Below, piece by piece: positions 10,193 to 62,500 of a DNA stretch of 64,000 bases; within the stretch, counting starts at the first letter, position 1; each line of letters starts with the position of its first letter. The stretch is from an uncultured Lentisphaerales bacterium (GTDB lineage: Bacteria; Verrucomicrobiota; Lentisphaeria; JABSQK01; UBA12247), in assembly GCA_943788985.1 (NCBI GenBank), contig CALSSJ010000010.1, positions 224,001 to 288,000 on the forward strand. The letters are read 5' to 3'. The notes beneath the pieces are model-generated. The model did no database searches. It had not been told where the DNA came from and was given only the letters and a program-made list of their open reading frames with translations. The position numbers and the translations under genes were made by a program.

Positions 10193-10756
10193 GTGACTCG
10201 CCTGTTTGCACTGCTCGCTACCTGTCTGGTGAGCTTCGGACAGGGGATGGGCCAGGGGCAATCGGTTAGACTCCAGCTCGACGACGCTATAGTCGTCTCA
10301 GGAGTTGTCGAAGCGATTGACGATGATCGCTATATGATTTCGCAAGCAGATGGCAAGACCGTCGTCGTTCGCGCAGAAGATATCGTGCAACTCGCCTTTG
10401 ATCCGGATGCTGCGAAAGTCTACCAAGACGAACTGGCGCGAGACGAAGCACCGCTGCCGAAGCTCACTCATCAGCAGTTTCAGCAGCTCGCAGGGCGGGA
10501 GACTATTCTGGACCTTGAATCTGCAGTCATGAAAATCTTAACGACGCCACAGTTACTTGCCTCAGTCGCGGAGCTAAGTCAGGAGCCGGGGCTGAAAACT
10601 CTGATTCAGGATGTCGGTGCAATGCAGCAATTCTACAAAGGACAGATCGCCGATTTCTCGAGGCATCCGGAAGTCGTGAAGCTGCGGGAAAATGCCAAGC
10701 TGCAGTCTCTGCTGGACGCGCTGGAGGCGCCGTCTAGTCCAGTCGCGGAAGAGTGA
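10193..10756 (+). CDS. Hypothetical exported protein
   Basis: GTG start directly after the GT2 stop; signal-peptide-like N-terminus. Confidence 0.6.
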   Translation: MTRLFALLATCLVSFGQGMGQGQSVRLQLDDAIVVSGVVEAIDDDRYMISQADGKTVVVRAEDIVQLAFDPDAAKVYQDELARDEAPLPKLTHQQFQQLAGRETILDLESAVMKILTTPQLLASVAELSQEPGLKTLIQDVGAMQQFYKGQIADFSRHPEVVKLRENAKLQSLLDALEAPSSPVAEE

Positions 10757-30266: not shown

Positions 30267-31711
30267 GTGTCTAAAACATCACTGAGCAAATGTCTGAGCG
30301 GCACCGAGTCGCTGGTGATCGATAGCCAGACCATGTCCGTGCACGAGTCGCTGCTTTCGGAGGTGCTGCGGGAAAGCAACGACCAGGTACCACAAGACTT
30401 GAAGCGTGAAGAACTCTCTGCTGTGGACGAGGAAGAGTATTACTGGAAGGTCATGGACCGCGGCGAGGGCGAAGAGCGCTACCGCGAGGAGCGCGAGATT
30501 GGCGCTGGCGGCATGGGTACTGTGAATCTTGTATTCGACGCCGACTTTTTGCGGTATTCCGCGATGAAGGTCATTCTCCCGGAGATCAAGTGCAAGCCAG
30601 AGGCACTCGCCGGCTTCATCCGCGAAGCTCGCATTACGGCGGAACTAGAACATCCCAACATTATCCCCGTGCATGACATGGGCTATGCGCCGGACCGGGG
30701 CATGTACTTCACCATGAAGCATGCTACTGGCGAGCCGCTCGTGCAGATTCTACGGCAAATCGAGCTGGGGAATCCACGCTATCGCGAGAAGTATAATTTT
30801 CTTTGCCTTGCTCGCGATCTTTTCGTAAAGTTTGTGACGCTGTCGCCTATGCCCATTCGCGCAACGTGATTCATCGCGACATCAAACCGCACAACATCAT
30901 GGTGGGTGACTACGGCGAAGTCCTGCTGATGGACTGGGGCCTGGCGAAATACATTGATGCCGACGCGCACGTTCCCGCTCCAATTTCCTACGCCAGGCGG
31001 AATGTGCTGGACGCGACAGCGACTGGCTTTGGCATGATTAAGGGCTCTCCCGCCTACATGTCCCCGGAGCAAGCCAGCGGAGAGCCGGATATTCTCGATC
31101 GGCGCAGTGATATTTTTCTCCTTGGCGCAACCCTATATCACATTTTTACGCTCTACCCGCCCTATTTGGCGGACGACATTATGGAGATCGTCAGCAAAGC
31201 GCGTCGGGCGGAGTTCACCCCACCGGCTTCTACGCGAACTGGCTGGATGGAGTTGCCTGAAGAGCTGTCGCAGATCATTGAAGAGGCGATGGCTGCTGAC
31301 CCCAACGAACGCTATGAGGACGTCGAGTCCTTGAGCGGAGATCTGGACTCGCTGATTCGGGGGGACATGCATTTTGGCAGTCGGACCTTCGAGCCGGGAG
31401 ACGTGATGATTCAGGAAGGCGACATCGGCTACGATTGTTACGTGATCATTGCGGGTAAGGTTGCGGTCTTGCGCGGAGGCAGCGAGATCGCAATGCTGGG
31501 GCCGGGAGACATCGTCGGCGAAATGGCGCTCATTACCCACGAGTTTCGATCGGCCACAGTCAAAGCGGTAGAGCGCACCCAGGCTTATGTGCTTACTCAG
31601 GATTTGTTCACCCGTAACCTGAAGAAGTTGCCCTCTTGGATGGCCCAAATGATTGTCACCCTCGCGGAGCGTTTACGCGAGTGCAATTCGCGCATCGCTG
31701 AGCACGAATAG
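30267..31711 (+). CDS. Hanks-type Ser/Thr kinase with a C-terminal cyclic-nucleotide-binding domain, frameshifted near 30797-30823
   Basis: 'IGAGGMG', 'HRDIKPHN', 'DWGLA', 'YMSPEQ'; CNB 'GDIVGEMAL...RSATV'. Removing one T from each of two T4 runs restores the frame. Confidence 0.85.
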
Positions 31712-32739: not shown

Positions 32740-34050
32740 ATGAAAACCATTGGCATCATTGTGCCGCCGGTTCCTGGGCATGTTATGCCGAGCCTGGCGC
32801 AGGCAGATGCACTGCGTAGCGAGGGCTGCCGCGTGCGTTACTACCAACTCGGGGACCTGCGAGACCAGATCGAGGAGCAAGGCCATGAATTCTGCGCCTT
32901 GGGCGCTTCGCGTTTTCAACCGGGGATGCTGGCTGAGATGCGGAGTAAGATTGCGAGCATGTCAGGGCTGCGCTGCGTCCGGGCGTCAGTGGAGCTATTC
33001 CGGGCAACTGCGGAGATGTTTGGCGATGAGCTGCCAGCGGCATTGGCTCGGGAGCCGGTCGATGCCTTGCTGATAGATCAGATTGAGCCCGCGCCAGCAC
33101 TGATTGCGCGGGCCCTCGGGATTCCGTATGTGAGCGTTGCCAATGCTCTGCCGATGGACCCAGATCCGTGGCACCCCCCAGCGACGACACCGTGGCTACC
33201 GGGTGGCGGGATTGGCGAACTCCGCAACTGCCTGGCACATCAGATGCTGCGGGTGGTGTTTCGCCCGACCTATCGGTTGTTGCGGAAGCTGGAGAGGCGG
33301 CATGGGTTACCCCGCGAGCCGATGATTTTTCCCTACCTGTCTGAACAAGCGCAGATTAATCAACTGGTGGAAGCGTTCGACTTTCCGCGTAAGCATCGGC
33401 CGGCGCACCTGCATTACTTGGGCGCGATGCGTTTGCGCTCGTACCGGGAGATCCCGTTCGACTTTGACAGGCTGGACGGTCGGCCGCTGGTCTATGCGTC
33501 GCTGGGGACCACGGTCTGTCGGCATTTGCCGCTGCTGCGCAAGATTGCGGAGATCGCGAGAGGGCGGGATGTGCAGTTGGTGCTATCTCTGGGAGGGCAG
33601 GCGACCGCGGCGGAACTGGGGGCGGTCCCTGAGAATGCGCTGGTCGTGGAATTCGCACCGCAGCCGGAGCTGATCGGGCGCGCAGACGCGGTGATCACGC
33701 ATGCGGGCCAGAACACGACGATGGAGGCGATCGCGAAAGGGAAACCTATGGTGGCGGTGCCCATCAGCTATGAGCAGCCGGGAATTGCCGCGCGCATTGA
33801 ACGGGCCGGGATTGGGCTCCGTTGTAGCCGCAAGGCGTCGACCGCGAGCATCGGCCAGGCACTCGACCGAGTGCTGTCAGAACCGGGGTTTGCGAACTCC
33901 GCAACCCAACTGGCAAAGGCCGGAGCGGCGGCAGGCGGGGCAGAGCGCGCCGCAGAGATCGTAATTAGCATGCTCCAGACGGGTTGTCAGCCCCCGCGTG
34001 GTCGCTACAGTAGCGCCCAAACACGGCCCCATACTACAGGTGAAACATGA
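32740..34050 (+). CDS. GT1 (UDP-glycosyltransferase), CrtX/MGT-like
   Basis: 'PPVPGH', 'YASLGT', 'FAPQPEL...ITHAGQNTTMEAI...YEQ'. Confidence 0.85.
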   Translation: MKTIGIIVPPVPGHVMPSLAQADALRSEGCRVRYYQLGDLRDQIEEQGHEFCALGASRFQPGMLAEMRSKIASMSGLRCVRASVELFRATAEMFGDELPAALAREPVDALLIDQIEPAPALIARALGIPYVSVANALPMDPDPWHPPATTPWLPGGGIGELRNCLAHQMLRVVFRPTYRLLRKLERRHGLPREPMIFPYLSEQAQINQLVEAFDFPRKHRPAHLHYLGAMRLRSYREIPFDFDRLDGRPLVYASLGTTVCRHLPLLRKIAEIARGRDVQLVLSLGGQATAAELGAVPENALVVEFAPQPELIGRADAVITHAGQNTTMEAIAKGKPMVAVPISYEQPGIAARIERAGIGLRCSRKASTASIGQALDRVLSEPGFANSATQLAKAGAAAGGAERAAEIVISMLQTGCQPPRGRYSSAQTRPHTTGET

Positions 34051-34769
34051 GCGAAGCCACCCAGCAGTTAGTTGACCTTCAGGATACCGATCGACGGATA
34101 CGGAAGCTGCAGCAGATCATTGATTCTGTGCCGCAGGAAAAGGCCAAAATCGAGGAAGAGCTAAGCGGCACGGAGGCCGTCGTCGAGGAGGCGAAGCATG
34201 GCTCGCAGGAAATGGAGATGCGGGTCAAAAGCCTTGAGATAGATATTGGCGTTATTCAGCAGAAAATGAATCATTTTTTGGGTCAGACTGCGGCCGTGAA
34301 GAAGAATGATGAGTACAAGGCGCTGCTGAGCGAGATCGAGAACTGCAAGGTGCAGATTTCGGACTTGGAAGATCAGGAGCTGGAGCTTTGGGAGGAGCGG
34401 GAAGGCACGTCGGCGGTGATGACTGATGCCTCGGAGCAGCTAAAAGCGGCGCGCAAGCGAATCGCGTCGGCGCTGGAAGATCTTGATGTGCGCGAGCGGA
34501 ACGCCTCTAGCCAGTTAGAGAAGCTGCGCGAGAAACGGGGCGCGCAAGTTAGCAGTATTGACGCTGTTGTCCTGGAGCCCTACGAGCGCCTGACGGAGAT
34601 CGCGAGGCGTCGTGGCCAGAACAAGGACTGCCTGGTTCCGCTGAATGGGAACTCGTGCGGCGGTTGCCACATGTCTTCGACTACCCAGACACAGGCTCAC
34701 GTGCGCGGCGGCAAGATTGTGCCCTGTGAGAATTGCGGATCCCTGATTTACTTCGCCCGCGGGGAATGA
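34047..34769 (+). CDS. Coiled-coil C4-type zinc-ribbon protein (DUF164/CT398-like)
   Basis: 'LVDLQDTD', 'EYKALLSEI', CGGC...CENC. Confidence 0.88.
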   Translation: MSEATQQLVDLQDTDRRIRKLQQIIDSVPQEKAKIEEELSGTEAVVEEAKHGSQEMEMRVKSLEIDIGVIQQKMNHFLGQTAAVKKNDEYKALLSEIENCKVQISDLEDQELELWEEREGTSAVMTDASEQLKAARKRIASALEDLDVRERNASSQLEKLREKRGAQVSSIDAVVLEPYERLTEIARRRGQNKDCLVPLNGNSCGGCHMSSTTQTQAHVRGGKIVPCENCGSLIYFARGE

Positions 34770-35575: not shown

Positions 35576-35647
35576 GCTGTGTATAGCCCGTGAGGGAAGA
35601 CGTAGTTGATAGGAAATTGCTTTTCCCGATACGGCCAAGATACGCTG

Positions 35648-35839
35648 ACGGGGTGAGCGAGTCAAAAACGGGGCGGAAACGGTGCAAAACCGAAGGGAGA
35701 GCGCCGTACCGATATTAGCGACAGAAAACTGAAATCCTGGCTAACGGGGTGAGCGAGTCAAAAACGGGGCGGAAACGGTGCAAAACCGAAGGGAGAGCGC
35801 CGTACCGATATTAGCGACAGAAAACTGAAATCCTGGCTA
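35648..35839. repeat. Perfect 96-bp tandem duplication
   Basis: ACGGGGTGAGCGAGTC...GAAATCCTGGCTA at 35648-35743 and 35744-35839. Confidence 0.95.
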
Positions 35840-35887
35840 AACAGGCCAGATCAAGCAACGAGAAGCCGTCTTCCTGGCGGGCGTTTT

Positions 35888-36470
35888 TCAGAAACCCATG
35901 AGAAACTCGTCGAAGTCTACATACTCGATTTCCAGCTCAATTTCTTCCGGTGTGGCAGGCTTGGGCGGCGCTCTGGTCGGGTAATCATCCCATAACTGAC
36001 AATGCTTGATTAAACGGTCGATGACATCGGCCGGGTCCTTCTGCGCAATGAACGCGACGATAGTCATCGCGCCGCCACATTGGGGACAGCACAATTGGGC
36101 TACCTCGTGTACTCGCTTAGTCAGCGCTGACCAAAGCATACGTTACAATTTACGATACAGCGTATCGCTGTCATCGGTGTTGAGGGGTTCAGGGCCCCCG
36201 TACTGGTGTACCTTTGCCTCTTCAGCCGCCTTAGCGTGCATACCACGCGCCTTATTCGACTACCACCCAGAGTATCGCAGGGGCTGCGCGCCGTACTCCG
36301 GAATATGCTTTGTCACCTTGGCTGTAAGATCATCGGGTATGGGTAGGAATTTGCCGTGTTTGGCGAAAGCTCCATCGGTAGATAGAGTGTGCATATGCAG
36401 ATGTCGATTTTTTAGGTAGGCAAAACTCTGGGGCGGGCCGACCATTCCCAGAACAACGTCGCTATACCAG
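35888..36470 (-). pseudogene. IS91-family HUH/Y2 transposase fragment with internal deletion and two in-frame stops
   Basis: 'HLHMHTLSTDGAF' (HUH); 'HIPEYGAQPLRYSGW*SNKARG'; 'WSALTKRVHEV...CPQCGG...IVAFI...RAPP'. Confidence 0.78.
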
Positions 36471-36485
36471 CAATATTGGGCCTAG

Positions 36486-37449
36486 GCGGTCGGCGATGAG
36501 GTCACTGTATCGCTCGATGTGACGACCTACGGCGTATCGATTAATGGCAATTCGGCAATCCACAGCTACACACCACCCAGTGGGACTGACTATCCGCTCC
36601 GCGTTCGTGGCAGTATTCTCCTCGTGACACTGCAGAATGCCATTGCTTACATTCCTGCTCCCAGCAACACACCCAGAATCACGAACTTCTCCTCTAGTGG
36701 AAATCGCGAGAATGTGTTCAGCATTGGCTAAGGCCTCATCATCACATTCGATTCAGCTACGAACACGCCTCCGCATGGCGTGAACTTCTGGCAGACCGAA
36801 AGCGTGAATGATCTCTTCATTTGAGCGAAGAATCGGATGCTACCTTGGTTCAAGTGCCAGTATCTTCAGCATCAGCGCCAGCGAGTTCCGCTCACCCAGT
36901 ATTCAGGTTTGTGGGCACGACCGTCACGCCGAACGCACGTGGTCTGCTCGCCCCATTCGGTCTGCGGATGGCACCATCTTCGCCGCATTCGAAACGAGTA
37001 CCATGCTCGCCGGTACCATTCGTCAGGCTGCTGGCGGTGCAGCCGTAGTGGAGTCTGCCACCATCCTGCTCAACCCAGGCTGGAACTTGGTCAGCGCGCC
37101 GCTTACGCTCTTGCAACCCGCGGCATCACTGGTCTTCCCAACCTCGGATCAAGTCATGGCTCTCGTCGACGTTGACCGGGCTCAGACTGATACGATTGAA
37201 GTGGGCAGTCGATGCTGGGTCTTTCACTCCAGAGACGCAACCAGCGTCACTGTATTCGGCGAGTGGCCTTCGGGATCAGTCTCAGTGGACCCCGGCTGGA
37301 ATATCGTCGGGTTCGGGGTGACGCAAGCTGTTCCCCCAGGCGCAATCGCCCGTGCGCAGAATGGCGATCGCCACGAAACGGTGGACGTACTGGAGGAAGC
37401 CGGAGGCTATTGGATTTACAGCGAACAACCCCTGACCATCTCCCTGTAG
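36486..37449 (+). pseudogene. Degraded 3' remnant of a large surface or secreted protein
   Basis: Beta-rich fragments interrupted by stops; the final ORF has twin 'LNPGWNLVS'/'VDPGWNIVG' motifs and ends 'GYWIYS'; no start or signal peptide. Confidence 0.5.
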
Positions 37450-37566: not shown

Positions 37567-37920
37567 GGGGGCGAAATGGTATCGACTGGCTGAGTTACGC
37601 TTATATTGCATGTGGAGGATGGTCGTTGGCCTCCTAAATCATCGACCGAACGTATAATTGCCAATACTGAAATGGCTCTTGCGGCTTAACTGACTGCATC
37701 GCGTTCACCCTGACGTCCGATACGGGATGAAGGCGTCCTTAATCGGACTTACCTCAAGCCGAGCTTTCGCGGTGCGAGGAACAACAACAGGAAGATAGTC
37801 TCGAAGCTGGCCCCGTTCGCTGGCATGTGGAGGGACGATAAACAACGAAGGCGAACTAAACATGTAGACGTGTAAGTAGTGCTTAACTAGGACCCGGGTT
37901 CGACTCCCGGCGCCTCCACC
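37567..37920 (+). ncRNA. ssrA: tmRNA, tag peptide ANTEMALAA* (37660-37689)
   Basis: 5' GGGGGCG pairs with 3' CGCCTCC-ACC; T-arm CCGGGTTCGACTCCCGG; ATAATT before the GCC resume codon; tag ends in LAA. Confidence 0.95.
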
Positions 37921-37985
37921 GTTCCTCAAGCCCGCCCGTGCTCAATAGCCGGGCGTCAGGCTGGACACGGAGCCAGATTCTGCGA

Positions 37986-43986: not shown

Positions 43987-44256
43987 ATGTCTATGGACGT
44001 CGAAACCAAAGCGGAAGTGATTAAAGAATACGCTCTGAGGGGTGGAGACACTGGCTCTTCGGACGTTCAGGTAGCCGTACTGACGCATCGGATCAAGGAA
44101 TTGACCGAGCACATGAAGGCGAATAAGAAGGACAACCACACACGCCGAGGCCTCCAGCTGCTCGTCCAGCGCCGTAAGAAGCATCTGAAGTACCTCAGCC
44201 GTACTCAACATGACCGCTATCGCGAGTTGATTCAGAAGCTCGGCTTGCGTCGCTAG
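43987..44256 (+). CDS. rpsO: 30S ribosomal protein S15
   Basis: 'DTGSSDVQVA', 'KDNHTRRGL', 'KLGLRR'. Confidence 0.97.
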   Translation: MSMDVETKAEVIKEYALRGGDTGSSDVQVAVLTHRIKELTEHMKANKKDNHTRRGLQLLVQRRKKHLKYLSRTQHDRYRELIQKLGLRR

Positions 44257-44284
44257 GCACAGCCTCTGCTAGACACTTTTGTGT

Positions 44285-44361
44285 GGTGGCTTAGCTCAGT
44301 TGGTTAGAGCAACGGAATCATAATCCGTGGGTCCGGGGTTCGAGTCCCTGAGCCACTACCA
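44285..44361 (+). tRNA. tRNA with CAT anticodon, probably elongator Met
   Basis: Cloverleaf: acceptor GGTGGCT/AGCCACT; anticodon arm ACGGA-ATCATAA-TCCGT; GTTCGA; encoded CCA. It lacks initiator features; Ile2 is not fully excluded. Confidence 0.92.
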
Positions 44362-44375
44362 AACTATTTTACAAG

Positions 44376-44411
44376 AAAAGCCCGGTTCGTGTAAACGAAC
44401 CGGGCTTTTTT
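44376..44411. terminator. Bidirectional intrinsic terminator after the tRNA
   Basis: AAAAGCCCGGTTCGT-gtaa-ACGAACCGGGCTTTTTT. Confidence 0.9.
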
Positions 44412-44439
44412 GTGTAGTTGATAGTTTGTCAGGCGCGAC

Positions 44440-44715
44440 TCAGTCTTTGAACACGGCCTCTTTGTGGATCAGCTTAGCGATTTTGTACAACAGCCCGAAT
44501 TTGTACGCATGCTCGTCGACACTGTCTCCGTTGTCCGGGGCGGTGGTCACGCCAAGCGCGTCAATGATGACGAAGATGGTGATGATCAAGGCCGGAAGTC
44601 GGCATGAAATCACGCCCACTAACCAAAGAATTAGGCCTGCGATGACCTTCTTGGTCTGGCCTAGGATAAAATATCCGATAGACGCCACGAAAGTGTTGAG
44701 AATCGGAGTGACCAC
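44440..44715 (-). CDS. Small membrane protein, possibly 5'-decayed
   Basis: Hydrophobic 'GYFILGQTKK...' with 2-3 TM segments; GTG start, and an in-frame TAA just upstream. Confidence 0.5.
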   Translation of the reverse strand: MVTPILNTFVASIGYFILGQTKKVIAGLILWLVGVISCRLPALIITIFVIIDALGVTTAPDNGDSVDEHAYKFGLLYKIAKLIHKEAVFKD

Positions 44716-44842
44716 TCTAGGGATTCCTTTCTTTTAACGATTGGCCAGTCGGTCCCTCTGTCCTATGTTTTTAGTTCCGTGCCTTAGCCCAAACTACCGT
44801 AACAGCGAAGTGTTGTGAATGATTTGTATTTTTGGAGCCCCT

Positions 44843-44882
44843 AAAAAAGACGCCCGGCCTGGAATTAACCAAACCGGGCGTC
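44843..44882 (-). terminator. Intrinsic terminator
   Basis: Minus strand GACGCCCGG...CCGGGCGTC-TTTTTT. Confidence 0.85.
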
Positions 44883-44896
44883 ATGGGACGAGGCAC
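44843..44896 (-). ncRNA. Candidate ~54-nt sigma54-dependent small RNA
   Basis: Lies between the -24/-12 promoter and the terminator; no RBS-led ORF. Confidence 0.5.
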
Positions 44897-44906
44897 CTAC
44901 CGACCT

Positions 44907-44923
44907 AGCAGGGGCCGTGCCAA
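44907..44923 (-). promoter_or_regulatory. Sigma54 (-24/-12) promoter
   Basis: TTGGCACGGCCCCTGCT: TGGCAC-N5-CTGCT with exact GG-N10-GC spacing. Confidence 0.65.
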
Positions 44924-45167
44924 GTTTGGATTGCGCGGGATTTGTTTGCAGGCCAGGGGCGTGTGGATTTCACTCGATCAGGGCCGGGGACATAATCGTA
45001 GACTCAGGGAGTCTGGAAGCACAAAAATGCAACGGTCCCGGCTGCGACGCAGCTATGTATGGTGAAGGTTCCGCGCCCGCGCTACTTGGCCTGATCGATC
45101 GTGATTGAACGGACGGTTCTGAGCAGAACACGAATGCTTGAGCACTCAGCGTGCCTTCACGAGGCTA

Positions 45168-47246
45168 CTAGAAGTAATAAATGGCGCAGCCGACTTGGAT
45201 GCCGCTTCCCACGTTAATGATCAGGCCGATATCACCGTTCTGGACCTGATTGGTCTCCTGCGCCCGTCGCAGCGTGTGCGGCAGGGACGAAGTAAACAGG
45301 TCTTTGCCACCGTCAACTACGTCGACAAACTTCTCGCGGACGATCCCAAGGGACTCACTCATGCGGGTGATGAATTCTGAGGAAATCTGCGGCGGAAAAA
45401 TGGCCTTGATCTGTGAGGCCTTCAGGTTCTCCCGCAGCATGACTTCGCAGACGGCATCCTTGATGCACTGCAGGTAGTACGTCTCAATCTCAGGATTGCG
45501 GATGAAACTAAGAAAGGCAAGCCCTTTCTCCTGGCCGATGTGAGAGCGAAAGGCGTCGATGTAATCGGTGAAATAGCGAAAAACAAAGCTGCCAAAGCCA
45601 GTCCGGTTGTCCTCGGATCGGTCAAGAATGAGTGCGGATCCGGTCTCGCGGACGCCGAGCAGTTCCTTGTCGGTCCCAGTGTTGTTCTCCACTTCAGAGG
45701 CGACGACCATGATGTTGTCGCACTTCTTAGCGGCGATCATTGCGATCGCATTGTAGCAGGCGTTCAGAAAGCCAATGGCACCGTTGAACACGTCGTAGGC
45801 GAACGTCTTCGGGCCATCAGGCTCGGCCTCGCCATTTACGCCCACACGGCCCGCGATCAGCGCAGCTAGGGCGGGCTCGCAGACGAATTCATTGCGGTGC
45901 ACGCCGGAGTGAATCAACATGTCGATCTGCTGCCGTTGATAAACGGAGCGATTGAAGCAGTCCTCCGCAGCGGCACCCGCGAGAGCGACTGCGTCGTGCT
46001 CCATGGTTGAGTCAAGCGGCACGATACCAATGCTTTCAATGCGGATGCGGGGCAGTGAAATCGGCGAAATTGAGACTGAAATCGATGGCTCGGCAGTCTT
46101 TGGCAAGATTTCCGCGACTGGGGCGGCGGTCCCGCCAAGTGCTGCTGGCATGCGTGCTTCTGCAGGGCGTTGTGCTTCAATTTCCCGCATCCGAACAGGC
46201 AAGTCATCGAATGTATACGGCGCGGTCCCGATCGTGATGCCAGATGCCTGAATCGCGAAAATCACGGTATCGCCCGGGTTGAACTTGTTCTTGGCGATGT
46301 TATCCCAGAGCGCCACAAAATGCGTGGTTGTGGAGGTGTTTCCTCGCTCTGCGAGGTTATTGATCATGCTCTCTTTGTCGCAGATCTCCTCGCCCATCAG
46401 GCGGTTGATCATATTCGCTGTCTGGCTGATCGCAGTGCGCGCCGTTTGATGCATGATGACGTAATTGATGGCGTCTCGCGGCCACTTCAGTTGCAGCAGG
46501 ACGGAGCCGAAATGGCGCACGGACTCGCGAATGGCCACGGCGTGCAACTTCATGGACTCCGTGAGCATGATCGCCCCACCGTGCTCTTCCTTGGTCGGCT
46601 TGGCGATGCAATACTCGCTGAATTTTCCGAGCGTGTACATATCGATGGCGTGAAAGCCCACTTTTGGGTTGTCGGTTCGCTCCAGCATGACGGCAGCGCC
46701 GGAGTCTCCGAGTGTCAGGCAGGCAATACGCTCATCATCACGATTCAGAATCTCCTTCTGGGCAGTCACTGTCAAGTGGGTGATGTACTCACCGCTGACC
46801 ACCAGTGCCCGCTTGATGAAGCCAGCGCGGATGTAGCTGTCTGCAATGTTGATCCCGGTGAACATACCAGCACAGGCATTGGAGATATCAAACACCAACG
46901 CATTGTCGAGCCCAAAGTCGCGCTTTAGTTGAACGGAGGTGCTGGGCTCGAATGAAAAGTGAAAATTGGGGCCATCATAGCGCGAGATATTGCAGCAAAT
47001 CAGCAACTCGACATCTCCGGGACCGTACTTGGAGCGGTCGAGACATTCCTGAATTGCGCGCCGCGCTAGGTCAATCGAAAATTCGCTCTCACCAGCCATA
47101 CGGCGGGTTTTGATGCCAGTCAAACGCTGCAGTGGCAGCATCATTTTGACACGGCAAGCGCGTAGAATCTCCTTGCTGGAGACTTTCTTCGGCGGCAAAT
47201 ACACACCGAGGCTTTCGATGACTGAGTGGCAGCCAGAATCGGCCAT
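45168..47246 (-). CDS. Tandem FabH/KAS III-like (thiolase-fold) fusion protein
   Basis: Domain 1 has 'ISNACAG', 'MHQT' and 'RGNT' (C-H-N). Domain 2 has 'VFNGAIG', 'PPQI' and 'KDLF' at the same positions. Confidence 0.85.
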   Translation of the reverse strand: MADSGCHSVIESLGVYLPPKKVSSKEILRACRVKMMLPLQRLTGIKTRRMAGESEFSIDLARRAIQECLDRSKYGPGDVELLICCNISRYDGPNFHFSFEPSTSVQLKRDFGLDNALVFDISNACAGMFTGINIADSYIRAGFIKRALVVSGEYITHLTVTAQKEILNRDDERIACLTLGDSGAAVMLERTDNPKVGFHAIDMYTLGKFSEYCIAKPTKEEHGGAIMLTESMKLHAVAIRESVRHFGSVLLQLKWPRDAINYVIMHQTARTAISQTANMINRLMGEEICDKESMINNLAERGNTSTTTHFVALWDNIAKNKFNPGDTVIFAIQASGITIGTAPYTFDDLPVRMREIEAQRPAEARMPAALGGTAAPVAEILPKTAEPSISVSISPISLPRIRIESIGIVPLDSTMEHDAVALAGAAAEDCFNRSVYQRQQIDMLIHSGVHRNEFVCEPALAALIAGRVGVNGEAEPDGPKTFAYDVFNGAIGFLNACYNAIAMIAAKKCDNIMVVASEVENNTGTDKELLGVRETGSALILDRSEDNRTGFGSFVFRYFTDYIDAFRSHIGQEKGLAFLSFIRNPEIETYYLQCIKDAVCEVMLRENLKASQIKAIFPPQISSEFITRMSESLGIVREKFVDVVDGGKDLFTSSLPHTLRRAQETNQVQNGDIGLIINVGSGIQVGCAIYYF

Positions 47247-50623: not shown

Positions 50624-50631
50624 GTTTCCTG

Positions 50632-51727
50632 AGGTCGGTACTGCCGCTTCGTCGTCGGGAAGAGTGCCAGTGTGATCAGATTTCGCTTGGCGAGACCATG
50701 CTGCGCTTGGATCCGGGCGATGGTCGCTTACGCACATCCCGTTCGTTCGACGTCTGGGAGGCGGCGGCGAGTACAACGTAGCGCGCGGTCTTCGTAAGTG
50801 CTTTTGCCTGAAGACCGCAGTCGTCACTGCCTTTGTGGACAATGAAATCGGGCACCTGCTGGAAGACTGCGTCATGCAGGGTGGCATAACGACTGATTTG
50901 ATCCGCTGGATGGACCATGACGGGATTGGTCGCGAGGTCCGCAACGGACTGAACTTCACCGAGCGCGGATTCGGAATCCGTGGCGCTGTGGGTTGCTCAG
51001 ACCGGGCGAATACCGAAGCTAGCCAACTCAAGCCCGGTCATTTTGACTGGGACCACATCTTTGGTGAGGTCGGCGTGCGCTGGCTTCATACTGGCGGCAT
51101 TTTCGCAGCCTTGCCCGACACCACCCCAGACGTTGTTCTAGAGCCTGTTTCAGCCGCGCATCGTCACGAGACGATCGTAAGCTATGATTTAAACTACAGG
51201 CCAAGCCTGTGGAGGAGCATTGGTGGCCCCGAGCGCGCGCAGGAATCGAATCGCGAGATTGCCCGGCATGTCGATGTGATGATTGGCAACGAGGAAGTAC
51301 CGCTTGCCAGCGGTTTGAAGTCCAGGGTGTTGGCGAGAGCATGAATGCCTTGGATGTGACCAACTTCAAAGCCATGATCGAACAAGCGATCAAGGCCTAC
51401 CCGAACTTTCGCGTGACTGCAACCACACTGCGAAATGTGCATACCGCCAGTGTTAATGGTTGGGGCGCAATTTCTCGGTGCAACGGCCTGTTTTATGAGG
51501 CCAGCCATCGCTCAGAGCTCGCAATCTTTGATCGTGTCGGCGGTGGCGATAGTTTTGCCAGCGGCCTAATTTACGGCCTGATGACCTATGATGATCCTCA
51601 GCTCGCAGTCGAGTTTGGCGCTGGCCATGGCGCCCTAGCCATGACTACGCCGGGCGATACGACCATAGCGACACTCGCCGAAGTGCGCAAATTAGTGGCC
51701 GGTGGAGGCGCTCGCGTAGACCGCTGA
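50632..51727 (+). pseudogene. PfkB-family 2-keto-3-deoxygluconate kinase-like pseudogene
   Basis: 'SLGETMLRLDP', 'GGEYNVA', 'SYDLNYR', 'DRVGGGDSF'; frameshifts at ~50760 and ~51298; AGG at the expected start position. Confidence 0.8.
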
Positions 51728-52293
51728 GAGCTGCGTGCTTATTGGAATATTGTGGCAGGCCCCCTTCCTAGTTGGCCGAAGACAAGAGGTGGCGTGCGCC
51801 AGCTTCTGCCTGTGAGGCATGTGTTCATTCAGTTCAAAACTACGAGATGCAGTGGTCTTACGCTGTTTATTTTCCACAGGGAGAACAGCGATGCCGTAGA
51901 GGGAGGTTTGCTTGTCGAAATCTAGGTGTGTGGCGTTGAGCGCGTTTTTAGAGTTGCCGAATATGTGAAGCACGAAGTATAAGGATAGGACCTAAGCCCT
52001 TCTTTGCTTGTACCCTCCATTCTTGATATCTGATCGCTTTTCCAATTTGGGTGATGATTTGCGGGTTCCTATTTGCTGCGACTCCGTAGCTGCTAAAGGT
52101 GCTGTATACTACAAAGATCAAGCGTACTATTGTATTTTTGGGAATGCCTGTTTAGTAAAGGGCGTTGCCCTCTAAACGATTTGTAAACTCTAGGGTCTGC
52201 ATCTTGCGCAGGGGGGCGGTAGTCTGCATTTTTCTCGCGGACGCATGTGCTCTTGCTGGGGCTTTCGTTTCTATCAAATTCGATGGAATCATT

Positions 52294-53256
52294 GTGAAAT
52301 TTTGGAAGTTGGCTGCGGTTATTGTGCAGGGTGTTTTGCTGTGGCAGGCGCGCTCTCCGGTTGCAGTAGTTGTTCCGAGGGCCCCGGCCCAGGATTTGGA
52401 TCTTGTGGCGACCGTTGACGGGTTGGAGATTCGCCGTGTCGCGCTGACTTCCGAGATGGACCGGCGTTCGGCCCGGGGGAGAGGTCTTGGCCAAGGTGGT
52501 TGTCTTGGAAGAAATGCTGGACCGACTAAGTCTGGTCGCTGAGGCGCGAGGCCAGGGATTACATGAGTCGCCTGCTGTGCGGCGTGGATGTGAGAACGTG
52601 TTGATCGGGGTTCTGCGTGAGCGAACTCTGGACAAGGAGCTCGAGGCGGTCGTTGTCAGTGAGGGCGATTTGGCGGCCGAGTATGCGAAGAGCAAGGAAA
52701 AGTAGTTCGTTCCACCCCAGGTTCGCTTTGCTATCATGTTTCTTGGGATCTCTGACACTGCGACCGATGAGCCCCGTGCGGAAGTGTTTGTGCGTCTGAC
52801 CGAGCGGAGACTGCTGGCTTTTGCGGCTGCTGATGATGAGGTGCAGGGCTTTGGTAAACTGGCTCTTTGTTGCTCGGAAGATAAATTCAAGAGTTGTAAG
52901 ATGGAGACGCCGGATGGATGGACGCGTGCTACGGGTCGCGCTGGGGAGCGTCGGTGCTTGAGGAAGCATTTTTGCTTCGGGAAATCGGTGACGTGAGCCC
53001 GGTGCTGCAGCTTGAGACGGGGGTCTGTGTGATCAAGCTCTTACAGCGTCGTGGTGGAAACACCCGCCCGCTGTCGGAGGTCTCCGCGCAGCTGGCGCAC
53101 CAGCTGCGAATCTCAAAGCGCAGTGAAGTTGAGGCGACGTTTCGGCTGCGCGCTCGCCGAGAATCGACCATTTTAGTCCATGAAAAAGCTTTTGACGGTA
53201 GTGGAGGCGTACTTGAGGGCGGTGGGGCTTTCTCTAGGCCGCCAGGCTTACCCTGA
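52294..53256 (+). pseudogene. PpiC/SurA-type peptidyl-prolyl isomerase pseudogene
   Basis: 'VATVDG', 'FGKLA...SED', 'AF.L..IGDVSPV'; frameshifts at ~52480 and ~52900; in-frame TAG at 52703-52705. Confidence 0.7.
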
Positions 53257-53511
53257 CCTCTTCTCGCGCTTGCGCCTGGTGTCGCGGGTTACGGGGCGCG
53301 GGGTGACTCGCCTCCGATCCGGCCACGGCGTCCGGGCGAGAAAGGTAACTTTCTTTCGTCGCTCGCGATAGAAATCGCGAAGCAACCCCGTACTGAGTAC
53401 GTGTCAACCCGTATACATGCACCCGTCGCACCCGCGCGTGTACGTACACAGGGGCTTGGCCGGAACCTACCCACAACCAAACGCTTCCATAGTCGCACCC
53501 AAGGAGACCCC

Positions 53512-56500
53512 ATGAATCAACGCCCGATTCACAATCCCCGAATTACACCACTGCATCGCATCTTGAGTGCGTTCGTGGCCAGCCTGATGATGACCTTTCC
53601 GTTCTCGGTTTTCGCGAACGAGCTTCCGCAGGGCGGAAGCGTGACTGCCGGTGAGGCAACGATTGGGTCCGCTGGAAGTGCGATGAACATCAACCAGGCG
53701 TCTCAGCGTGCCATTATCGACTGGCAGTCATTCAGCGTCGGCCAGGCCAACGCAGTGTTTATCAATCAGCCATCTGCGACATCAGCATTGCTGTCCAGGG
53801 TGAACGGGGTCGACCCGTCCGTGATTCTGGGTACACTGCAAGCGAATGGCTCGCTGTACCTGTTGAATCCCAACGGTGTGATTTTCGGCGAGAATGCGAC
53901 CATTGATGTGGGCTCGATTCTAGCGTCGACGATGGACATGACCAACGATAACTTTCTTGCGGGGCGCGACGCGTTCGAGGGCAACAGTGATGCGACGATT
54001 GAGAACAGGGCCGATATTGCGGCACAGGACTTCGTGGCCTTTCTGGCCAAGAACATTGTGAACTCTGGCCGCATTCAGGCACCGCGAATCGCGATGTCTG
54101 CCGGGGTTGGCAGCTTGGAATTGGATCATGCATACGGCGGAGCAATCACGATCGACCTGCAGGGCGTGCAGGGCGACTTTGATAACTCTGGCGTGATTGA
54201 TGCCAGCAGCTTGGTCGATAGCTATGACGGTGGAGCGATTGTGATTCAGGGCGAGAATCTCAGCAATACCGGCTCGATTCTAGCGGATGCCAGTGGCAAC
54301 GGATCAAATGGTGGTGCGATCGAGTACAGTGCTGGCGGGAATGCAATTCATGAGGGCGTCATGAGTGCATCTTCAGCCCAGGGCAAGGGTGGTGCTATCT
54401 CCGTGACTGGCGAGAATGTGGGTGTCGCAGGGACTGTCGCAGCTGATGGGCTGGCAGATCCCCAGGGCGGCAACAACGGTGGCTACATTGAGTTTGCTTC
54501 AACCAACAATGCGGTATTCGCACCAACGGCCCGCGTGAGTGCAAAAGGCAACGGAGAGATTCGGATCAATCAGCCTGGCAGTGATGTCGCTGCTTTCGAG
54601 AAAACTGCGACCATTCTGTATGACGGCGCTAGCCTTGATGCTGGGACTGATGGTTTCCTTGAAGTCTCCGGCGGCGGTCTTTCGATCGGGCAAGTTTCCC
54701 TTACCGCCGGTCACATCTTGTTTGATCCGACGAAGATTACTTTTTCGGACCTGGGTGGCGCTATCGGCGATACCAATAACGGCGTGCCCGGAGGGAACGC
54801 ATTCAGCGGACCTGATTTTATCGAAGCATTCAACGAGGATGTCGGCGATGACGTGGTTTTTAACATCAACCCGGCTGGTAGCGGTGTGCTAAGCGCAGGC
54901 ACAATTGTTTCTGGTGCAACCATTACTTTTGAAGCTACAGATACAATCACGGTGGCCTCAGATTTTGACGTGCGCGCAACGACTGGCGCAGAGGATGTTA
55001 GTGTGATTCTGCGAACGGGATCCGACGCTGGAGACGGGATTTTTGTAAATGCACTATTGACGCTGGACGACACTGCCGTACTTGAGTTGAGCGGCTATGA
55101 AGTGGACATCAATGACACAGTTACTGCTGGCGTCGTCAATATCGTAGCTGATACCGATGTCGATTCCACTGGCGGATCGATCGCTGCAAATACTTTGAGT
55201 GTTCTTTCGGGCGAAGATATTGCGCTTAATACCGATATTCGCGACTCTGTTACGCTGATCAGCAATGGCGTTGCTGGAAACAATGATATTGCAATCACGA
55301 ATACTAGCACTTCCCAAGACGCAACAACCTTCGTTGCGCGGGCTTTCGGTGCCAATTCCGATATCGCTATCATCCAGGCGGGTGGCGGCGACGGCGCGAT
55401 TATTGAAAGCGCAGTTACCACGGATGGTACGATTTCGTTGACTGGTACCGCGAATGACCTTGTTGCTCAGCAAGTCACTGCCGGTGGCAGCAATAATATT
55501 TCATTGACTACGACTGGCGGCGGAGACTTGTCCGTTGGTGAAATTGCTGCGCTCGGCGCGACCGTGACAGTTCAAGCTGACGGCGCTGTGTTTACTCCGA
55601 ACAGCGACTTAATTAATGTAGCCGCCGATGCCCTTGTAATTATTGACGCTGATAGCGTTGGCTCGATCGATCAAGCGCTCAACACCAGTGTGATCACACT
55701 CGCGGGGACTGCGATTGACGGCGATCTACACATTGCGGATGCGGGTGTCCTGTTGACGGTTGGGACGGTCACTGACTTTGGTGGGACTGCCCGGGCTGGC
55801 CTGGTCACAACTATTGGCGATATCTATATCAGTGGCGAAAATGTGACGGTGAGTCAGCGGTTGGCCTCGTCATTTGGTGATATTAATTTGGACATCGCCA
55901 ACGACCTGACAGTTGAGGCTGCGATTCAGACGGCTGGTGGCAACCTCTCCGTAGATATCGGGCGCCATGTGACCTTTGAACCTGGCGGTTCGGCTTCTGC
56001 CCGCGAGCTGGTCGTTGACGTGGGCGGCTCAATTTCCGCCGACGGCATCACTGGCACCAATGAACTCATCGGCGCTACATCTGTTGACATTGTCCGGGCC
56101 GACATTCTCGAGGATGTGACGATTAGTTCGCCTGACCTCTGGATTCGGCAGGCCAATACGGTCTCGATTCAGGTGCCGAGCCCAAATATCCGCCAGATTT
56201 TTGCCACCGGCGACATTACGATCGCCGTGAGTAGTGATGAGTTGAGAATTGGAGAAATTCGTACTGGGGCTGAGGTGATTATCAACGCCCAGGGAAATAC
56301 GGATATTGCCGGAATTGGCGACGCCAATACCACCATTCAGGCCCAAAGCTTGCAAATTACTACCGCGGGCCAGATCGACATTCACGCTAACGTGAATGAG
56401 GCAGTCTTCAACGATATTCGGGAGAGTCCAACTAATCTGGGCACCCCGATCCCGGGCGTAATTTTCCGCAATGAAGGAAATCTCGACCTAACTTTCACAG

Positions 56501-59500
56501 ATGTTCAAAGTGAAGCCGGAATTCTCGTAGATAACGTCGGCACACTGACAGTGAATGCGAGCACTGGCACAATCGACGCGCGCGACATTGATCTTCGGGC
56601 GACAGATACGATTACGCTGGCTGGCAACCATACCCTGGCTGCAGGCGAGCAGTTTCTGGTTAGGTCATCAAGCGGAGACGTGATCCTCAACGATGGCGTG
56701 ACGATTACCACAAGTGCTGCCGCTTCGACAACCGATGAGTTGGTTCGCTTGGCTGCTGCTGGCGACGCCGTCCTCGAAGGCACTTTTGCGACGACGAACC
56801 ACAACAGTCGGATTACAGCTGACGGCGGCATTCATCTAGGTGGAAACATTACTGCCACAGCAGCTGAGACCGTCATTCTCGAAGCTGGTGCAGCGATCAC
56901 TGATGATGCGGATATCGCAACCCAAATCACAGCTGGCACGCTGAGTATTCTGGACGCGAACGGGGTTGGCAGCATCGCGAATCCGATTAATACCACGGTC
57001 GACACGCTGTCCATCATTGGGGCAGCGAACGAGGCGGTCGTCAGTGGTGAAACGCACGTGCGCCAGACGCAGGACATCACCGTCGATAACGTCGAGACGG
57101 TGAATGGCTCCTTCTTCCTTACTACCGAGGACAGCGTTGCTGGAACGACTGCCAGCGTACTGGTCGAATCGATTGATGTAGGCAACGCAGCGGTCGGCAT
57201 TACCGCAGACGGTAGCATCGCGACATCTACGGCTCTCGTTAGCGGCCTGATTCGCGGCGCGGACTTGACCCTGACGACCAATGTCCCAGATGCGCTGGAA
57301 GGCAGCATCACTGTGGCGACGGAGATCACGGGATCGACCATCGTGGCCACCACAGGCGCAGTGGGTGGCACTACCGGTGACGTCGATAACATCACCATTT
57401 CCAATTCTAGCACGTCCGATACGACGATCATCGCCGAAGCGTTTGGCGAACGTGCGAACATCACACTTTCGCAGACTAACGGTGGCTTGATTGTCGAACG
57501 TGCGACGACCGCCAACGGTACCATTGGGATCACCGGCATTGATGCGAACATCCTGGCTGATGAAGTAACCGCGGGCGGAGCTACCAGCATTTCGCTGACC
57601 ACACAAAACAGCGGTGACATCGCGCTCGGCGCAGTGAGCGTAGCCGGCGGTGAGGTGGAGCTGACCGCTGTCGGCAGTGTGACGGATGCTGGAGCAGCTA
57701 CGAATGTGACCGCGGAGACTCTGACCATCGCTGGTGCTGTCAATGTGGGTGCCGAGGACGACGTGATCAGCACGGCTGTCGATTCGGTCCGAACTACAAC
57801 AACAATCACGGGCGATCTGCACATTGCTGATGCAGATGCGCTCACAATTTCCGCAGTCAGCGCTGCTGGGAACATTGGTATTAGTGCACAAGGAACCGTT
57901 GGCGTAACCGCGGCCGTAACGAGTACGGCTGGGAACATCGCGATCGCTGGTACCAGCCCGGGCGCGGACGTATTAGTCGAAGGTGTCGTGACATCCAACT
58001 TGGGTAACATCACAGTTATGAGCGCGAACAACCTGACGGTTGATGATGGCGGCCGTCTCGCAACCAACATCGGTAGAATCGAAATCAGCAGTGGTGCGGA
58101 CATGACGCTCACTGGCGCTGGCACCAATGTAGTTGCCACGAACGGGGACATCGACTTTACAGTTGGTGGTGAGTTCCTCACTGAAATTGGTACAGTTGGC
58201 CTGAGCACGACAAGCAGCCGCAGCACCATCACAGGTACGGTCAATGGTTCCATGGATCTGGCTGCTGGCGCAATCGGCGCTGGCGCCGGGACGGTCCGTC
58301 TGGACGTCTTGGGAAACATTACTGGCGACGACATTGCAGGTACGAACGAAATCGACGGTGGTGTGCTGATCATTGACCACGTTGAGCATCTGGACGGGAT
58401 TAAGACCGGCGTTGCGGAACTAACCGTGAAAAACTCTGATCTGATAAACATCCAAGTCGCGTCAATAGCGATCCCGCTTTTGAACGCTACCGACGATATC
58501 ACGATCGTCACCACCGGTAATGAAGTCGAATTGGGCAACGTGACCACCAATGCCACGCTTTCGATCAGCGACAGCGGTGTGCCGGATGCGGATATCGTCA
58601 GCATCGGCGGCGCACAGAACAGCACCGTGCAGGCGCGCACGCTGGAGATCTTTAACGTCGGCCAAGTGGACGTCGAAGCAAACGTCAATGTTGCCACGTT
58701 CTCGAACATTACCGAGAGCCCGACAACACTTGGTGGCGCTGCTATCCCAGGTGTACTTTTCCGCAACGAGGGCAATCTGACTCTGACACTGCGTGACATC
58801 GCCAGCGACAACGGGGTCCTGGTTGAAAACGTCGGTCAGCTGACTCTTAATTCGCTCGGAGGCACCATTGACCTGCCGGATGTGGACTTGCGTGCTACCG
58901 GAGATGTTACAGTGAATGGCGACCACACCCTGCAGGTAGGCGAGACTCTATCGCTGACATCCCATACAGGTGACGTGACGCTGACAGGCGGTACGATTAC
59001 GGTCAGCTCCGCCGCCGTGACAACGAGCAATTTGCTCGACATTAGCGCTGGTGCTAATGCGACTCTTGGCAGTGTCTTGAACTCAACCAACGCAAATGTC
59101 AGCATCACCGCGGGCGATGGGATCGCCTTGAATTCCGACATTACCACGACGGCGGGGACCGAGACTGTGACCCTCTCCGCGGGCGATCGGATCAGCGATG
59201 ATGGCAACAGTGCTACCGATGTCTCTGCGGGTACCCTTAGCATCCTTGCCGCGGATGGTATTGGCACGGCTGCTGCAGCTGTAAACACTGACGTCACCAC
59301 ACTGTCCATCATCGATGGTGCCAGCAATGCCGTTGTTACTGGCGATACTTACGTCCGGCAGGTTCGCGACATCGTGGTGGAGAACGTCGAGACCGTCAAT
59401 GGTAATTTCAACTTGACTACCGAAGACAGCGTTGCGGGTACGACCGCTAGTATCACGGTTAAGTCCTTAGACGTTGGTACTGCAGCCGTGAGCCTTACTG

Positions 59501-62500
59501 CCGATGGCACAATCGCGACCGCTACTGGCGGCACAACAGGCCTGATCCGCGGTGCAGATCTCACCCTGACCACGAATGTCCCGGACGCGCTGGATGGCAG
59601 CATCGAAGTAGCAACTGAGATCACTGGTTCGACGATTATTGCCACTACTGGCGCAACCGGAGGGACCACCGGTGACGTGGACCACATCACAATCGCCAAC
59701 TCCAGCACCAATGACACAACTATCGTTGCCGATGCCTTTGGCGAACGCGCAAACATCACGCTCTCGCAGACTAACGGTGGGCTGGTTGTGGAACGTGCCA
59801 CGACCGCCAACGGTGCCATCGGGATCACTGGCATTGATGCGAACATCTTGGCTGATGAAATTACTGCCGGTGGCGCTACTAGTATTTCATTGGTCACTCA
59901 AAACAGCGGTGACATTGCACTTGGGGCAGTGGGCGTTGCAGGCGGTACCGTAATACTAAATGCAGTAGGTAGCGTATCGGACGCAGGCGCGGGCACGAAT
60001 ATCACGGCAGAGACATTGACCATCGCTGGTGCAGTGAATGTTGGTTCTGAGGACGACGTGATCAGCACAGCAGTGGACTCCGTGCAAACCACTACTGCTG
60101 TTACTGGCGACCTGCACATTACTGATGCAGACGCGCTCATCATTGCCGATGTAGAAGCAGCCGGAAACATTGGAATTAGTGCTCAGGGTACCGTTGGCGT
60201 AACTGCAGCAGTCACCAGTACTGGCGGAAATGTGGCGATTGCCGGAACTGCCCCTGCCTCTGACCTTCTGGTCGAGGGCGCAGTGACCGCAAGCCTTGGC
60301 AACATCACCGTTTCTGCTGTTGATGAGTTGACCATTGATGATGGTGGTAGCCTCAGCACTAATCTCGGTACAGTCGACCTCAATAGCGGTTCTGACATGA
60401 CGCTGACCGCCGCCGGCAGTAACGTTGTTGCCACGAATGGTGACATCAACTTCACGGTCGGCGGAGACTTCCTTACCGAACTCGGTTCCAATGGCTTGGT
60501 TACCCAGAACGGCAGGAGCACAATCAATGGTACCGTTGCCGGCAATATGGACCTAGCACCGAGCGCCATCGCCGCTGGCGCTGGCACCGTTCGCTTGGAC
60601 GTCCTGGGCAATATCAGCGGTGACAACCTCCCAGGCACCAACGAGATTGATGGCGGCGTGCTGATCGTTGAGCAAGTCGAGCACTTGGACGGCATCAAGA
60701 CTGGTGTCAGTGAACTGACAGTTAAGCAAGCCGACCTGATTAACATCCAAGTTGCCTCGATTGCTATTCCATTGCTGAACGCAACTGATGATATTACGAT
60801 CGTCACTACTGGAAACGAAGTCTCGCTTGGAACAGTGACAACAAATGCCACTCTTTCTATTCGCGACAACGGCGTATTCGATGCAGACATTGGCAGTATC
60901 GACGGTGCCCAGAATACGACCATCCAGGCGCGTACTCTCCAGATTTCCGATGTCGGTCAGGTCGACCTCGAAGCAAATGTCGATATCGCAATTTTTGATA
61001 ACGTGACCGAAAGCCCGACTACTGTCGGTGGCGGCGGAATTCCTGGCGTAATTTTCCGCAACGAAGGCGACCTGACCTTGACGCTACGAGACATCGCCAG
61101 CGACAATGGCGCGCTGGTCGAGAATGTTGGGCAACTCACCCTGCTGTCGGCATCAGGTACAATCGACCTGCCAGACGTCGAGCTACGTTCGACCGACAGC
61201 ATTGCCATTAACGGCGATCAGACCTTTCAAGCCGGCGAGGTGTTTACGGTCGTATCCGATACGGGTGACATCACTGCATCCGGTGGGACCATCACGGTTG
61301 GCGCTGCTGCTGCAACTGCCACCAATCTGATCGACTTCACGGCTGGTGCTGATGCAGACCTGAGCAGCGTGCTAAGTTCCACCAACGGCGGGATCAGCGC
61401 AGCCGCCGGTAACAGCATCAGGCTGAATTCTGACATCACGACCTCCGCTGGCACCGAGACAGTTACGCTCGCAGCCGGGGGCCAGATCGTAGACGATGCG
61501 AACAACGCGACCGACATTTCCACAGGCACCCTGAGCATCCTTGACGCGAATGGCATTGGTACGCTGGCAGCCCCAGTCAACACCGACATTACCACGCTTT
61601 CAATCACGGACGCCGCGGGCAATGCTGCGGTTACCGGTGATACGCACATTCGCCAGATTCGTGACATCACGCTGGCTCCAGTCGAGACTGTCAACGGCAA
61701 CTTTAACTTGACCACCGAAGACGGCGATGCCGGAACTACTGCCAGTATCAGCGTTGAATCTTTGGACGTAGGCACTGCTGCGGTTAATCTGAATGCTGAT
61801 GGTAGCATCGCGACGATAATTGGCGGCACGACTGGCCTGATTCGCGGCTCCGATTTGACCTTGACCACTCAGGTCGAGAATGCATTGGACGGGAGCATTA
61901 CCGTGGCAACGGAAGTTACTGGCTCTACGATCATCGCCACGACAGGTGACGCTGCTGACAACAACTTTGGCCAGAACGACGACATCACGATCGCCAACTC
62001 CTCCGCAATCGATACGACGCTCGTAGCAAACGCCTACGGAGAAGGTGCGGACGTCACTGTCACTCAGACGAACGGTGGTCTGACTGTACAATCCATCAGC
62101 ACTGAGAATGGCGCGATCAGCGTGACTGGCGTCGACGCCGACTTGACCATCGATGAAGTTACCGCAGGCGGTACCAACGATGTGACTCTCGCGACGCAGA
62201 ATAGCGGAAACATTGGCCTCGGCGCAGTGACTGCTGGTGACGATAGCGTAATCATCAACACTGTGGGCGACGTGTTCGACCACGGTGCTGGGGTCAACGT
62301 CACAGCCGCCACTCTGAACATTCAAGCGGCTCGCAATGTCGGAACGTCTGTAGATGACATCACAACGGCAATTGACACGTTGACTGCCGCAGGAGTGACT
62401 GGCGCTTTGAACGTGACTGACGAAGACGCCCTGGCGATTGGGGCTCTCAGCGTGGCGGACGACATCAATATCGCTGCTGCCGGTGTGCTGACTGTGAACG

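Follow-up and report, generated by a model that had tools for sequence, protein, structure and literature searches.

The Qrr RNAs of Vibrio come from sRNA genes with sigma-54 promoters that act together with an enhancer-binding protein, as described in PMC10162802. In the account given in PMC3730234, they end at a rho-independent terminator, act by base pairing and fold into four stem-loops. Pairing is attributed there mainly to stem-loop 2, while the 5' stem-loop is described as protecting the RNA against RNase E. GlmY and GlmZ of Enterobacteriaceae are also presented as products of sigma-54-dependent sRNA genes (PMC3162934, citing Reichenbach 2009 and Gopel 2011). Several sRNAs are of interest for their architecture. 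RybB is described as pairing via its first 16 nt (PMC3730234), and unstructured C-rich seeds are described for many Gram-positive sRNAs (PMC12205990). The latter source gives, as features of Hfq-type sRNAs, a 3' U tail and a U-rich stretch beside the seed that aids binding to the Hfq rim. NsiR1 is described as HetR-dependent in PMC9045159, and PMC3162934 describes cyanobacteria as organisms without sigma-54.

The locus studied here lies on the minus strand of a 64-kb stretch of DNA, which was analysed as a whole and is called the window below. It combines a sigma-54-type promoter-like element, a short C/U-rich segment and an intrinsic terminator in one intergenic gap. The coordinates of these elements and of the features around them are given in Table 1.

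Table 1 Features of the candidate locus and its surroundings in the window.
Feature	Position	Strand	Remarks
Upstream gene: 692-aa double FabH-like (KAS III) protein	45168-47246	minus	Pfam ACP_syn_III, ACP_syn_III_C
Non-coding stretch upstream of the promoter-like element, 244 nt	44924-45167	minus	palindromes, weak terminator-like site
Sigma-54-type -24/-12 promoter-like element TTGGCACGGCCCCTGCT	44923-44907	minus	sequence read; GG 44921-44920, GC 44909-44908
Predicted +1 and unpaired C/U-rich 14-nt segment GUGCCUCGUCCCAU, proposed seed	44896-44883	minus	+1 inferred from the 12-nt rule
G+C-rich 14-bp hairpin GACGCCCGGUUUGG/UUAAUU/CCAGGCCGGGCGUC, 6-nt loop	44882-44849	minus	terminator scan, folding
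T6 tract, the U6 tail of the predicted RNA	44848-44843	minus	completes intrinsic terminator
Downstream gene: 91-aa two-helix membrane protein	44440-44715	minus	35 relatives at E <= 1e-3, no Pfam family
Two-way terminator hairpin	44376-44414	both	A and T runs on each side
tRNA-Met	44285-44361	plus	
rpsO	43993-44256	plus	
tmRNA gene	37567-37921	plus	158.5 bits, tag peptide ANTEMALAA

The sigma-54 promoter consensus is approximately TGGCACG-N4-TTGCW. The sequence TGGCACGGCCCCTGCT (44922-44907) deviates from it only in the first base of the -12 box, where C replaces T, and the spacing in TTGGCACGGCCCCTGCT, read on the minus strand, is exactly GG-N10-GC. Sigma-54-dependent transcription usually starts 12 nt past the GC box. 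With C44908 taken as -12, the predicted +1 is G44896, which leaves 11 bases between the GC box and G44896. An earlier sequence-only reading of this DNA had claimed the same spacing and a +1 near 44896, and its coordinates are borne out on the minus strand. The promoter scan found no sigma-70-like site overlapping the sigma-54 element.

The window has two exact copies of the 16-nt pattern TGGCACGNNNNYTGCW, where 0.12 are expected; 1 of 100 shuffles reaches this number. Of the shorter pattern TGGCACNNNNNYTGC there are three copies, with an expectation of 0.53. Apart from the candidate, the exact copies (38114, 59262) belong to long ORFs, namely an AcrB-type pump gene and an ORF of >3533 aa, so that the candidate is the only intergenic one. 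As the second exact pattern sits in coding DNA, an exact match need not have an obvious role as a promoter. When one mismatch is tolerated, the number of matches in the window comes close to chance (18 found, 12.25 expected), and it is therefore the exact match that carries the weight. The second exact 16-mer, at 59262-59277 on the plus strand, is part of the ORF 53401-63999 (>3533 aa), which has no Pfam domain; a one-mismatch copy, TGGCGC...CTGC, is found at 53093-53107 (plus), in the gap of 510 nt that precedes this ORF. A further one-mismatch sigma-54-like site, AGGCACAGCCTCTGC at 44255-44269 (plus), lies over the stop codon of rpsO, 16 nt before tRNA-Met, and is most likely due to chance.

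A transcript from the predicted start would be 54 nt long, with the hairpin beginning at its nucleotide 15. The terminator scan gives the hairpin 14 pairs, 10 of them G-C, and together with the T6 tract it has the features of an intrinsic (rho-independent) terminator. Only the minus strand has this arrangement; read on the plus strand, the hairpin has no T run behind it. The segment 44900-44840 folds at -29.8 kcal/mol (z = -4.8), which none of 200 shuffles equalled, and the 14-nt 5' segment is unpaired in the centroid structure of this fold. The sequence, the terminator scan and the fold thus confirm what the sequence-only reading had described as about 14 unpaired nucleotides followed by a GC-rich hairpin and U6, and the predicted length agrees with the terminator-capped RNA of ~54 nt that it had proposed. 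At 14 nt, the leader is not long enough to be a riboswitch or an attenuator, and in the fold it does not compete with the hairpin. The predicted RNA has no internal U-rich stretch; only CCCAU stands before the hairpin. Coding readings of the site were considered and rejected, since neither the 41-aa ORF that opens at +1 nor a 53-aa ORF upstream belongs to a Pfam family.

The window was also scanned for terminators (hairpin followed by T5, dG of -12 or lower). Eleven such sites were found in the 64 kb, 5 of them intergenic, and only three are clean single hairpins: 2153 (minus), 44406 (plus) and the candidate. With -27.9, the candidate is the strongest of the three. The terminator at 2153 stands 56 nt past its stop codon and that at 44406 follows tRNA-Met. 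From the candidate it is 320 nt back to the closest preceding stop codon on the same strand, that of the FabH-like gene. For the exact 16-nt motif to fall within 60 nt upstream of one of the 3 clean terminators, our own arithmetic gives a chance of ~2e-4 per window, from 0.12 x (3 terminators x 60 nt)/128,000. The promoter-seed-terminator anatomy is real and statistically unusual.

Rfam models were compared with the site at several scopes. At the gathering score, the whole window yields the tmRNA and tRNA only, and a 1.1-kb scan at E <= 10 yields nothing at the candidate site. In a 121-nt scan the best match is NsiR1 (RF02399), with 19.0 bits where 39 are needed and E = 0.066, and a betaproteobacterial toxic sRNA scores 14.3 bits where 50 are needed. 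Both identities were rejected, as the alignments are carried by the hairpin and the U tail only. Qrr gives no row at E <= 10 in the site scans and none at the gathering score, and GlmY/GlmZ give no row in any Rfam scan. As no Rfam model matches at threshold, the candidate belongs to no curated family. The sequence-only reading had likewise not recognised a known family.

The candidate unit occupies a gap of 452 nt, the fourth largest of 41 gaps, where the median gap is 16 nt. The stretch between the FabH-like gene and the promoter-like element contains three perfect palindromes with 6-nt arms (45129-45116, 45053-45041 and 45014-45000), centred near -226, -150 and -110. Shuffled sequences contain 0.70 on average, and three were reached in 6.8% of 500 shuffles, which is not significant; as possible activator binding sites, which are expected some 80-150 nt ahead of the start, the palindromes are suggestive. 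The small ORF at 44970-45131 in this stretch has no Pfam family. An 11-nt complementarity (82%) was noted between 44919-44929, in the -24 region, and 44869-44879, in the 5' arm of the hairpin. We considered it as an anti-terminator for read-through RNA and rejected it, as the minimum-energy fold computed for the 331 nt that lead from the FabH-like stop codon to the terminator does not contain it. It could rival the hairpin only in RNA that comes from upstream.

Downstream, the relatives of the 91-aa protein are ~100 aa long, align end to end and have two hydrophobic helices. By this comparison of sequences, the 91-aa ORF is a real, conserved gene. Its relatives start ~12 codons earlier, with the consensus MAxLxxK...P.V. 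In the window, the ancestral codons are recognisable at 44716-44748 (minus), where CTG replaces the start and a TAA follows five codons in. Either the start of the gene has shifted to the GTG at 44715, or the gene is decaying. The terminator at 44376-44414 is common to this ORF on the minus strand and to rpsO-tRNA-Met on the plus strand, and rpsO and tRNA-Met look co-transcribed.

The host was placed by its GyrB and FabH-like proteins. GyrB has one relative at 90% identity (P0122) and the remaining relatives are at 69% or lower, those with names (60-66%) coming from Lentisphaeria, Lentisphaerae, Victivallales, Kiritimatiellaeota and Verrucomicrobiota. The best genome matches of the FabH-like protein are Lentisphaeria MAGs at 54-59% identity. 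Together these matches indicate a PVC lineage that branches deeply and is poorly sampled. In the 64-kb window, a Sigma54 or Sigma54_activat domain is present in none of the 48 translated ORFs, no gene for rpoN, an activator or hfq lies within it, and the activator motif GAF[TS]GA is found neither in the window nor in 80 related loci. PMC3162934 reports sigma-54 in Chlamydia, another member of the PVC group. Our literature search found no statement that Lentisphaeria carry rpoN and no sRNA or sigma-54 work on a Lentisphaeria-like PVC lineage. A CT398/HP0958-like protein with a coiled coil and a zinc ribbon is encoded at 34047-34769 (plus). Relatives of this protein are described as binding RpoN in Chlamydia and Helicobacter, and the same source places the family also in mycobacteria, which lack sigma-54 (PMC5947703); for this reason the protein is not diagnostic of sigma-54.

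The neighbourhood was compared with that of the 80 related loci, which were fetched by a second scan of genome contigs with an alignment built on the FabH-like protein; the first scan, with the FabH-like protein itself, had given no match. None of the 80 loci shares the neighbourhood, and a tblastn search of them with 7 neighbouring proteins of the window had as its sole match an AcrB-like gene in one locus (L078). A blastn search with the 452-nt gap gave chance matches only among the related loci (best E = 0.43), and a distant blastn search gave no match in a plasmid collection. The sigma-54 pattern matches 17 times in the 1.19 Mb of these loci, with no match in the 10 loci from Lentisphaeria/Victivallales. 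One match (10296-10330), in a Ktedonobacteraceae MAG (L011), lies ~300 nt past a FabH-like domain. It is inside the coding sequence of a thioesterase-like protein, whose ORF follows an 1832-aa FabH-containing megasynthase, and we rejected it as chance.

As a workaround, proteins were searched with the translation of the open plus-strand frame that spans the candidate. One strain, ~99% identical, is represented by an ORF call across the region (P0241), in which 76 of 77 residues are identical. At the resolution of amino acids, no difference shows in the two boxes, the seed or the hairpin. The one substitution, P to R, falls in the codon 44904-44906 (-8 to -10), between the -12 box and the start, and two further changes lie upstream at ~45063 and ~45102. 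As the divergence is only ~1%, this comparison has almost no power on conservation. The FabH-like protein has a relative at 84% (P0002).

The sequence-only reading had also held that the CCUC and UCCC of the seed pair with Shine-Dalgarno regions. Within the window this part gained no support, and pairing does not rise above background. Only 11 of 38 predicted starts (uncurated) have an SD-like 4-mer ahead of them, and the best seed duplexes with start regions reach -17.0 kcal/mol at 2 of the 38, where the 5% level of 2000 random 60-mers is -16.6. The search for paralogues of the seed, carried out on the window, had no better outcome. No second copy with up to 2 mismatches is present there, and up to 3 mismatches give 6 matches against 7.2 expected, all of which have 3 mismatches except the candidate itself. 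Near-copies of the seed or its complement do not exceed the chance number in the window.

Some other features of the window were noted in passing. Three genes appear to be split into overlapping ORFs in different frames (24651-25836, 29353-30226 and 30267-31711). Their predicted products are a DegT-type aminotransferase, RNase HII and a Ser/Thr kinase that carries a cNMP-binding domain. The two ORFs of the aminotransferase gene, like those of the kinase gene, match successive portions of a single Pfam profile, and for RNase HII only the first ORF matches. These are frameshifts that are either real or errors of assembly. The largest stretches without a convincing gene are 35576-36807 (1232 nt) and 50624-52092 (1469 nt), and the ORFs of the latter have no Pfam family.

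Given the unusual anatomy, the lack of an Rfam family and the 452-nt gap, a short stand-alone transcript is the simplest reading of this DNA. We regard a stand-alone, sigma-54-dependent RNA gene of ~54 nt, the product of which pairs with mRNAs through its 5' end, as a plausible candidate and hold it tentatively, at rather less than an even chance. The analysis shows the sequence elements themselves, how they are spaced, how rare they are and how they fold. What we infer is that the RNA depends on sigma-54, starts at the predicted site, is terminated in vivo and acts in trans on target mRNAs, and the proposed sequence of events is the following. RNA polymerase with sigma-54 would bind the element at 44923-44907, and an enhancer-binding activator, possibly seated at the palindromes 110-150 nt upstream, would switch the promoter on. 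Transcription would then run from near G44896 to the hairpin and U6 at ~44843 and yield an RNA of ~54 nt. Its sole free part, the C/U-rich 5' end of 14 nt, would most likely pair with G/A-rich stretches of mRNAs elsewhere in the genome, and this pairing would alter translation or stability of the target mRNA. The hairpin and the U tail would confer stability and perhaps allow a chaperone to bind. Some transcripts, a minority, may continue into the gene of the 91-aa membrane protein.

The hairpin and U6 might instead serve the FabH-like gene or operon as its distal terminator, at the end of a 3' UTR of ~320 nt, and the motif would be silent or non-functional, either as the organism has no sigma-54 or as no activator acts here. 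We consider this possible, though somewhat unlikely. The only terminator-like site that precedes the hairpin on the way from the FabH-like stop codon (45168) is a weak one of 5 bp (45045-45029, minus), so that FabH-like read-through would end at 44843. The 331-nt stretch from stop codon to terminator also folds somewhat better than shuffles (z = -2.6; 1 of 100 as good), another exact copy of the motif lies inside a coding region, and none of the 48 ORFs translated from the window shows a sigma-54 domain. The chance of ~2e-4 per window that an exact motif precedes a clean terminator by no more than 60 nt speaks against this explanation, and so do the strand and spacing of the motif, which are right for a start just ahead of the hairpin. 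The other clean terminator at a gene end is also far closer to its stop codon (56 nt against 320 nt).

It is less probable still that the sigma-54 promoter is real and serves the 91-aa gene, with the hairpin as a leaky or regulated stop in the leader and the 54-nt RNA as a by-product of attenuation. By the scan's rule, the minus strand carries no sigma-70-like site from the terminator to the start of the 91-aa ORF (44843 to 44716), and this ORF is conserved and has its own terminator (44414-44376). Sigma-54 is also described as a frequent regulator of envelope-related genes (PMC3162934). However, a hairpin of 14 bp with 10 G-C pairs and U6 is a strong stop, and the 14-nt leader offers no alternative pairing able to open it. 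The ancestral first codons of the 91-aa ORF are moreover damaged, and its expression signals may therefore be in flux. A very improbable further alternative is that the short RNA binds a protein, or that the site is bound by polymerase that rarely fires. The sigma-54 holoenzyme forms closed complexes that await an activator, and such a complex, together with the hairpin, could insulate the FabH-like unit from the downstream gene. All that speaks for this explanation is the promoter-like match and the terminator, together with the lack of a target in the window; nothing specific points to it, and the 54-nt RNA has no repeated protein-binding motifs such as GGA loops. The stand-alone RNA gene is compatible with both the FabH-like terminator and the leader of the 91-aa gene, since the hairpin would stop transcripts of either origin.

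That the locus encodes a minimal riboregulator of 54 nt, consisting of a bare 14-nt seed and one hairpin and switched by sigma-54 and an enhancer-binding protein in an uncultured, Lentisphaeria-like PVC lineage, is a more doubtful proposal. To our knowledge, no sigma-54-dependent sRNA has been described outside the Proteobacteria and Myxococcus groups; such an RNA would be the first and would rank among the shortest natural base-pairing sRNAs. We know of no sRNA studied so far in this Lentisphaeria-like phylum. If the proposal is true, the RNA would be a tiny, cleanly bounded regulator with an on/off promoter that needs a dedicated signal-sensing activator. The wiring of sigma-54 to sRNAs known from Qrr and GlmY would extend to another phylum, with a minimal model of seed plus terminator and a handle on signal-dependent post-transcriptional control there. 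Should it not be real, what remains is a terminator of the ordinary sort and a motif that arose by chance. No long-standing open question is touched in either case.

The sequence-only reading had likened the layout to that of Qrr. The likeness is a loose one. A sigma-54-dependent sRNA ending in a terminator is indeed known from that system, but Qrr has four stem-loops whereas the candidate consists of a single hairpin behind a bare 5' end of 14 nt, and the phylum differs. GlmY acts by protein mimicry and is about three times as long as the candidate. The candidate resembles GlmY/GlmZ in its predicted link to sigma-54 but has no Rfam match to them and no overlapping sigma-70 site. The model of NsiR1, a cyanobacterial sRNA, has 60 positions and aligns to 44899-44844, nearly the whole predicted transcript. 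The two are alike in overall shape, in that a brief 5' portion leads into a terminator hairpin followed by a U tail, but the small 5' hairpin of the NsiR1 model is deleted in the alignment. Among the features of Hfq-type sRNAs, the U6 tail is present, whereas the U-rich stretch beside the seed is absent. Although RybB-type sRNAs and the Gram-positive sRNAs with C-rich seeds show no sequence or model match to the candidate and differ from it in promoter type and lineage, its unstructured C/U-rich 5' end of 14 nt is more like their seeds than like Qrr.
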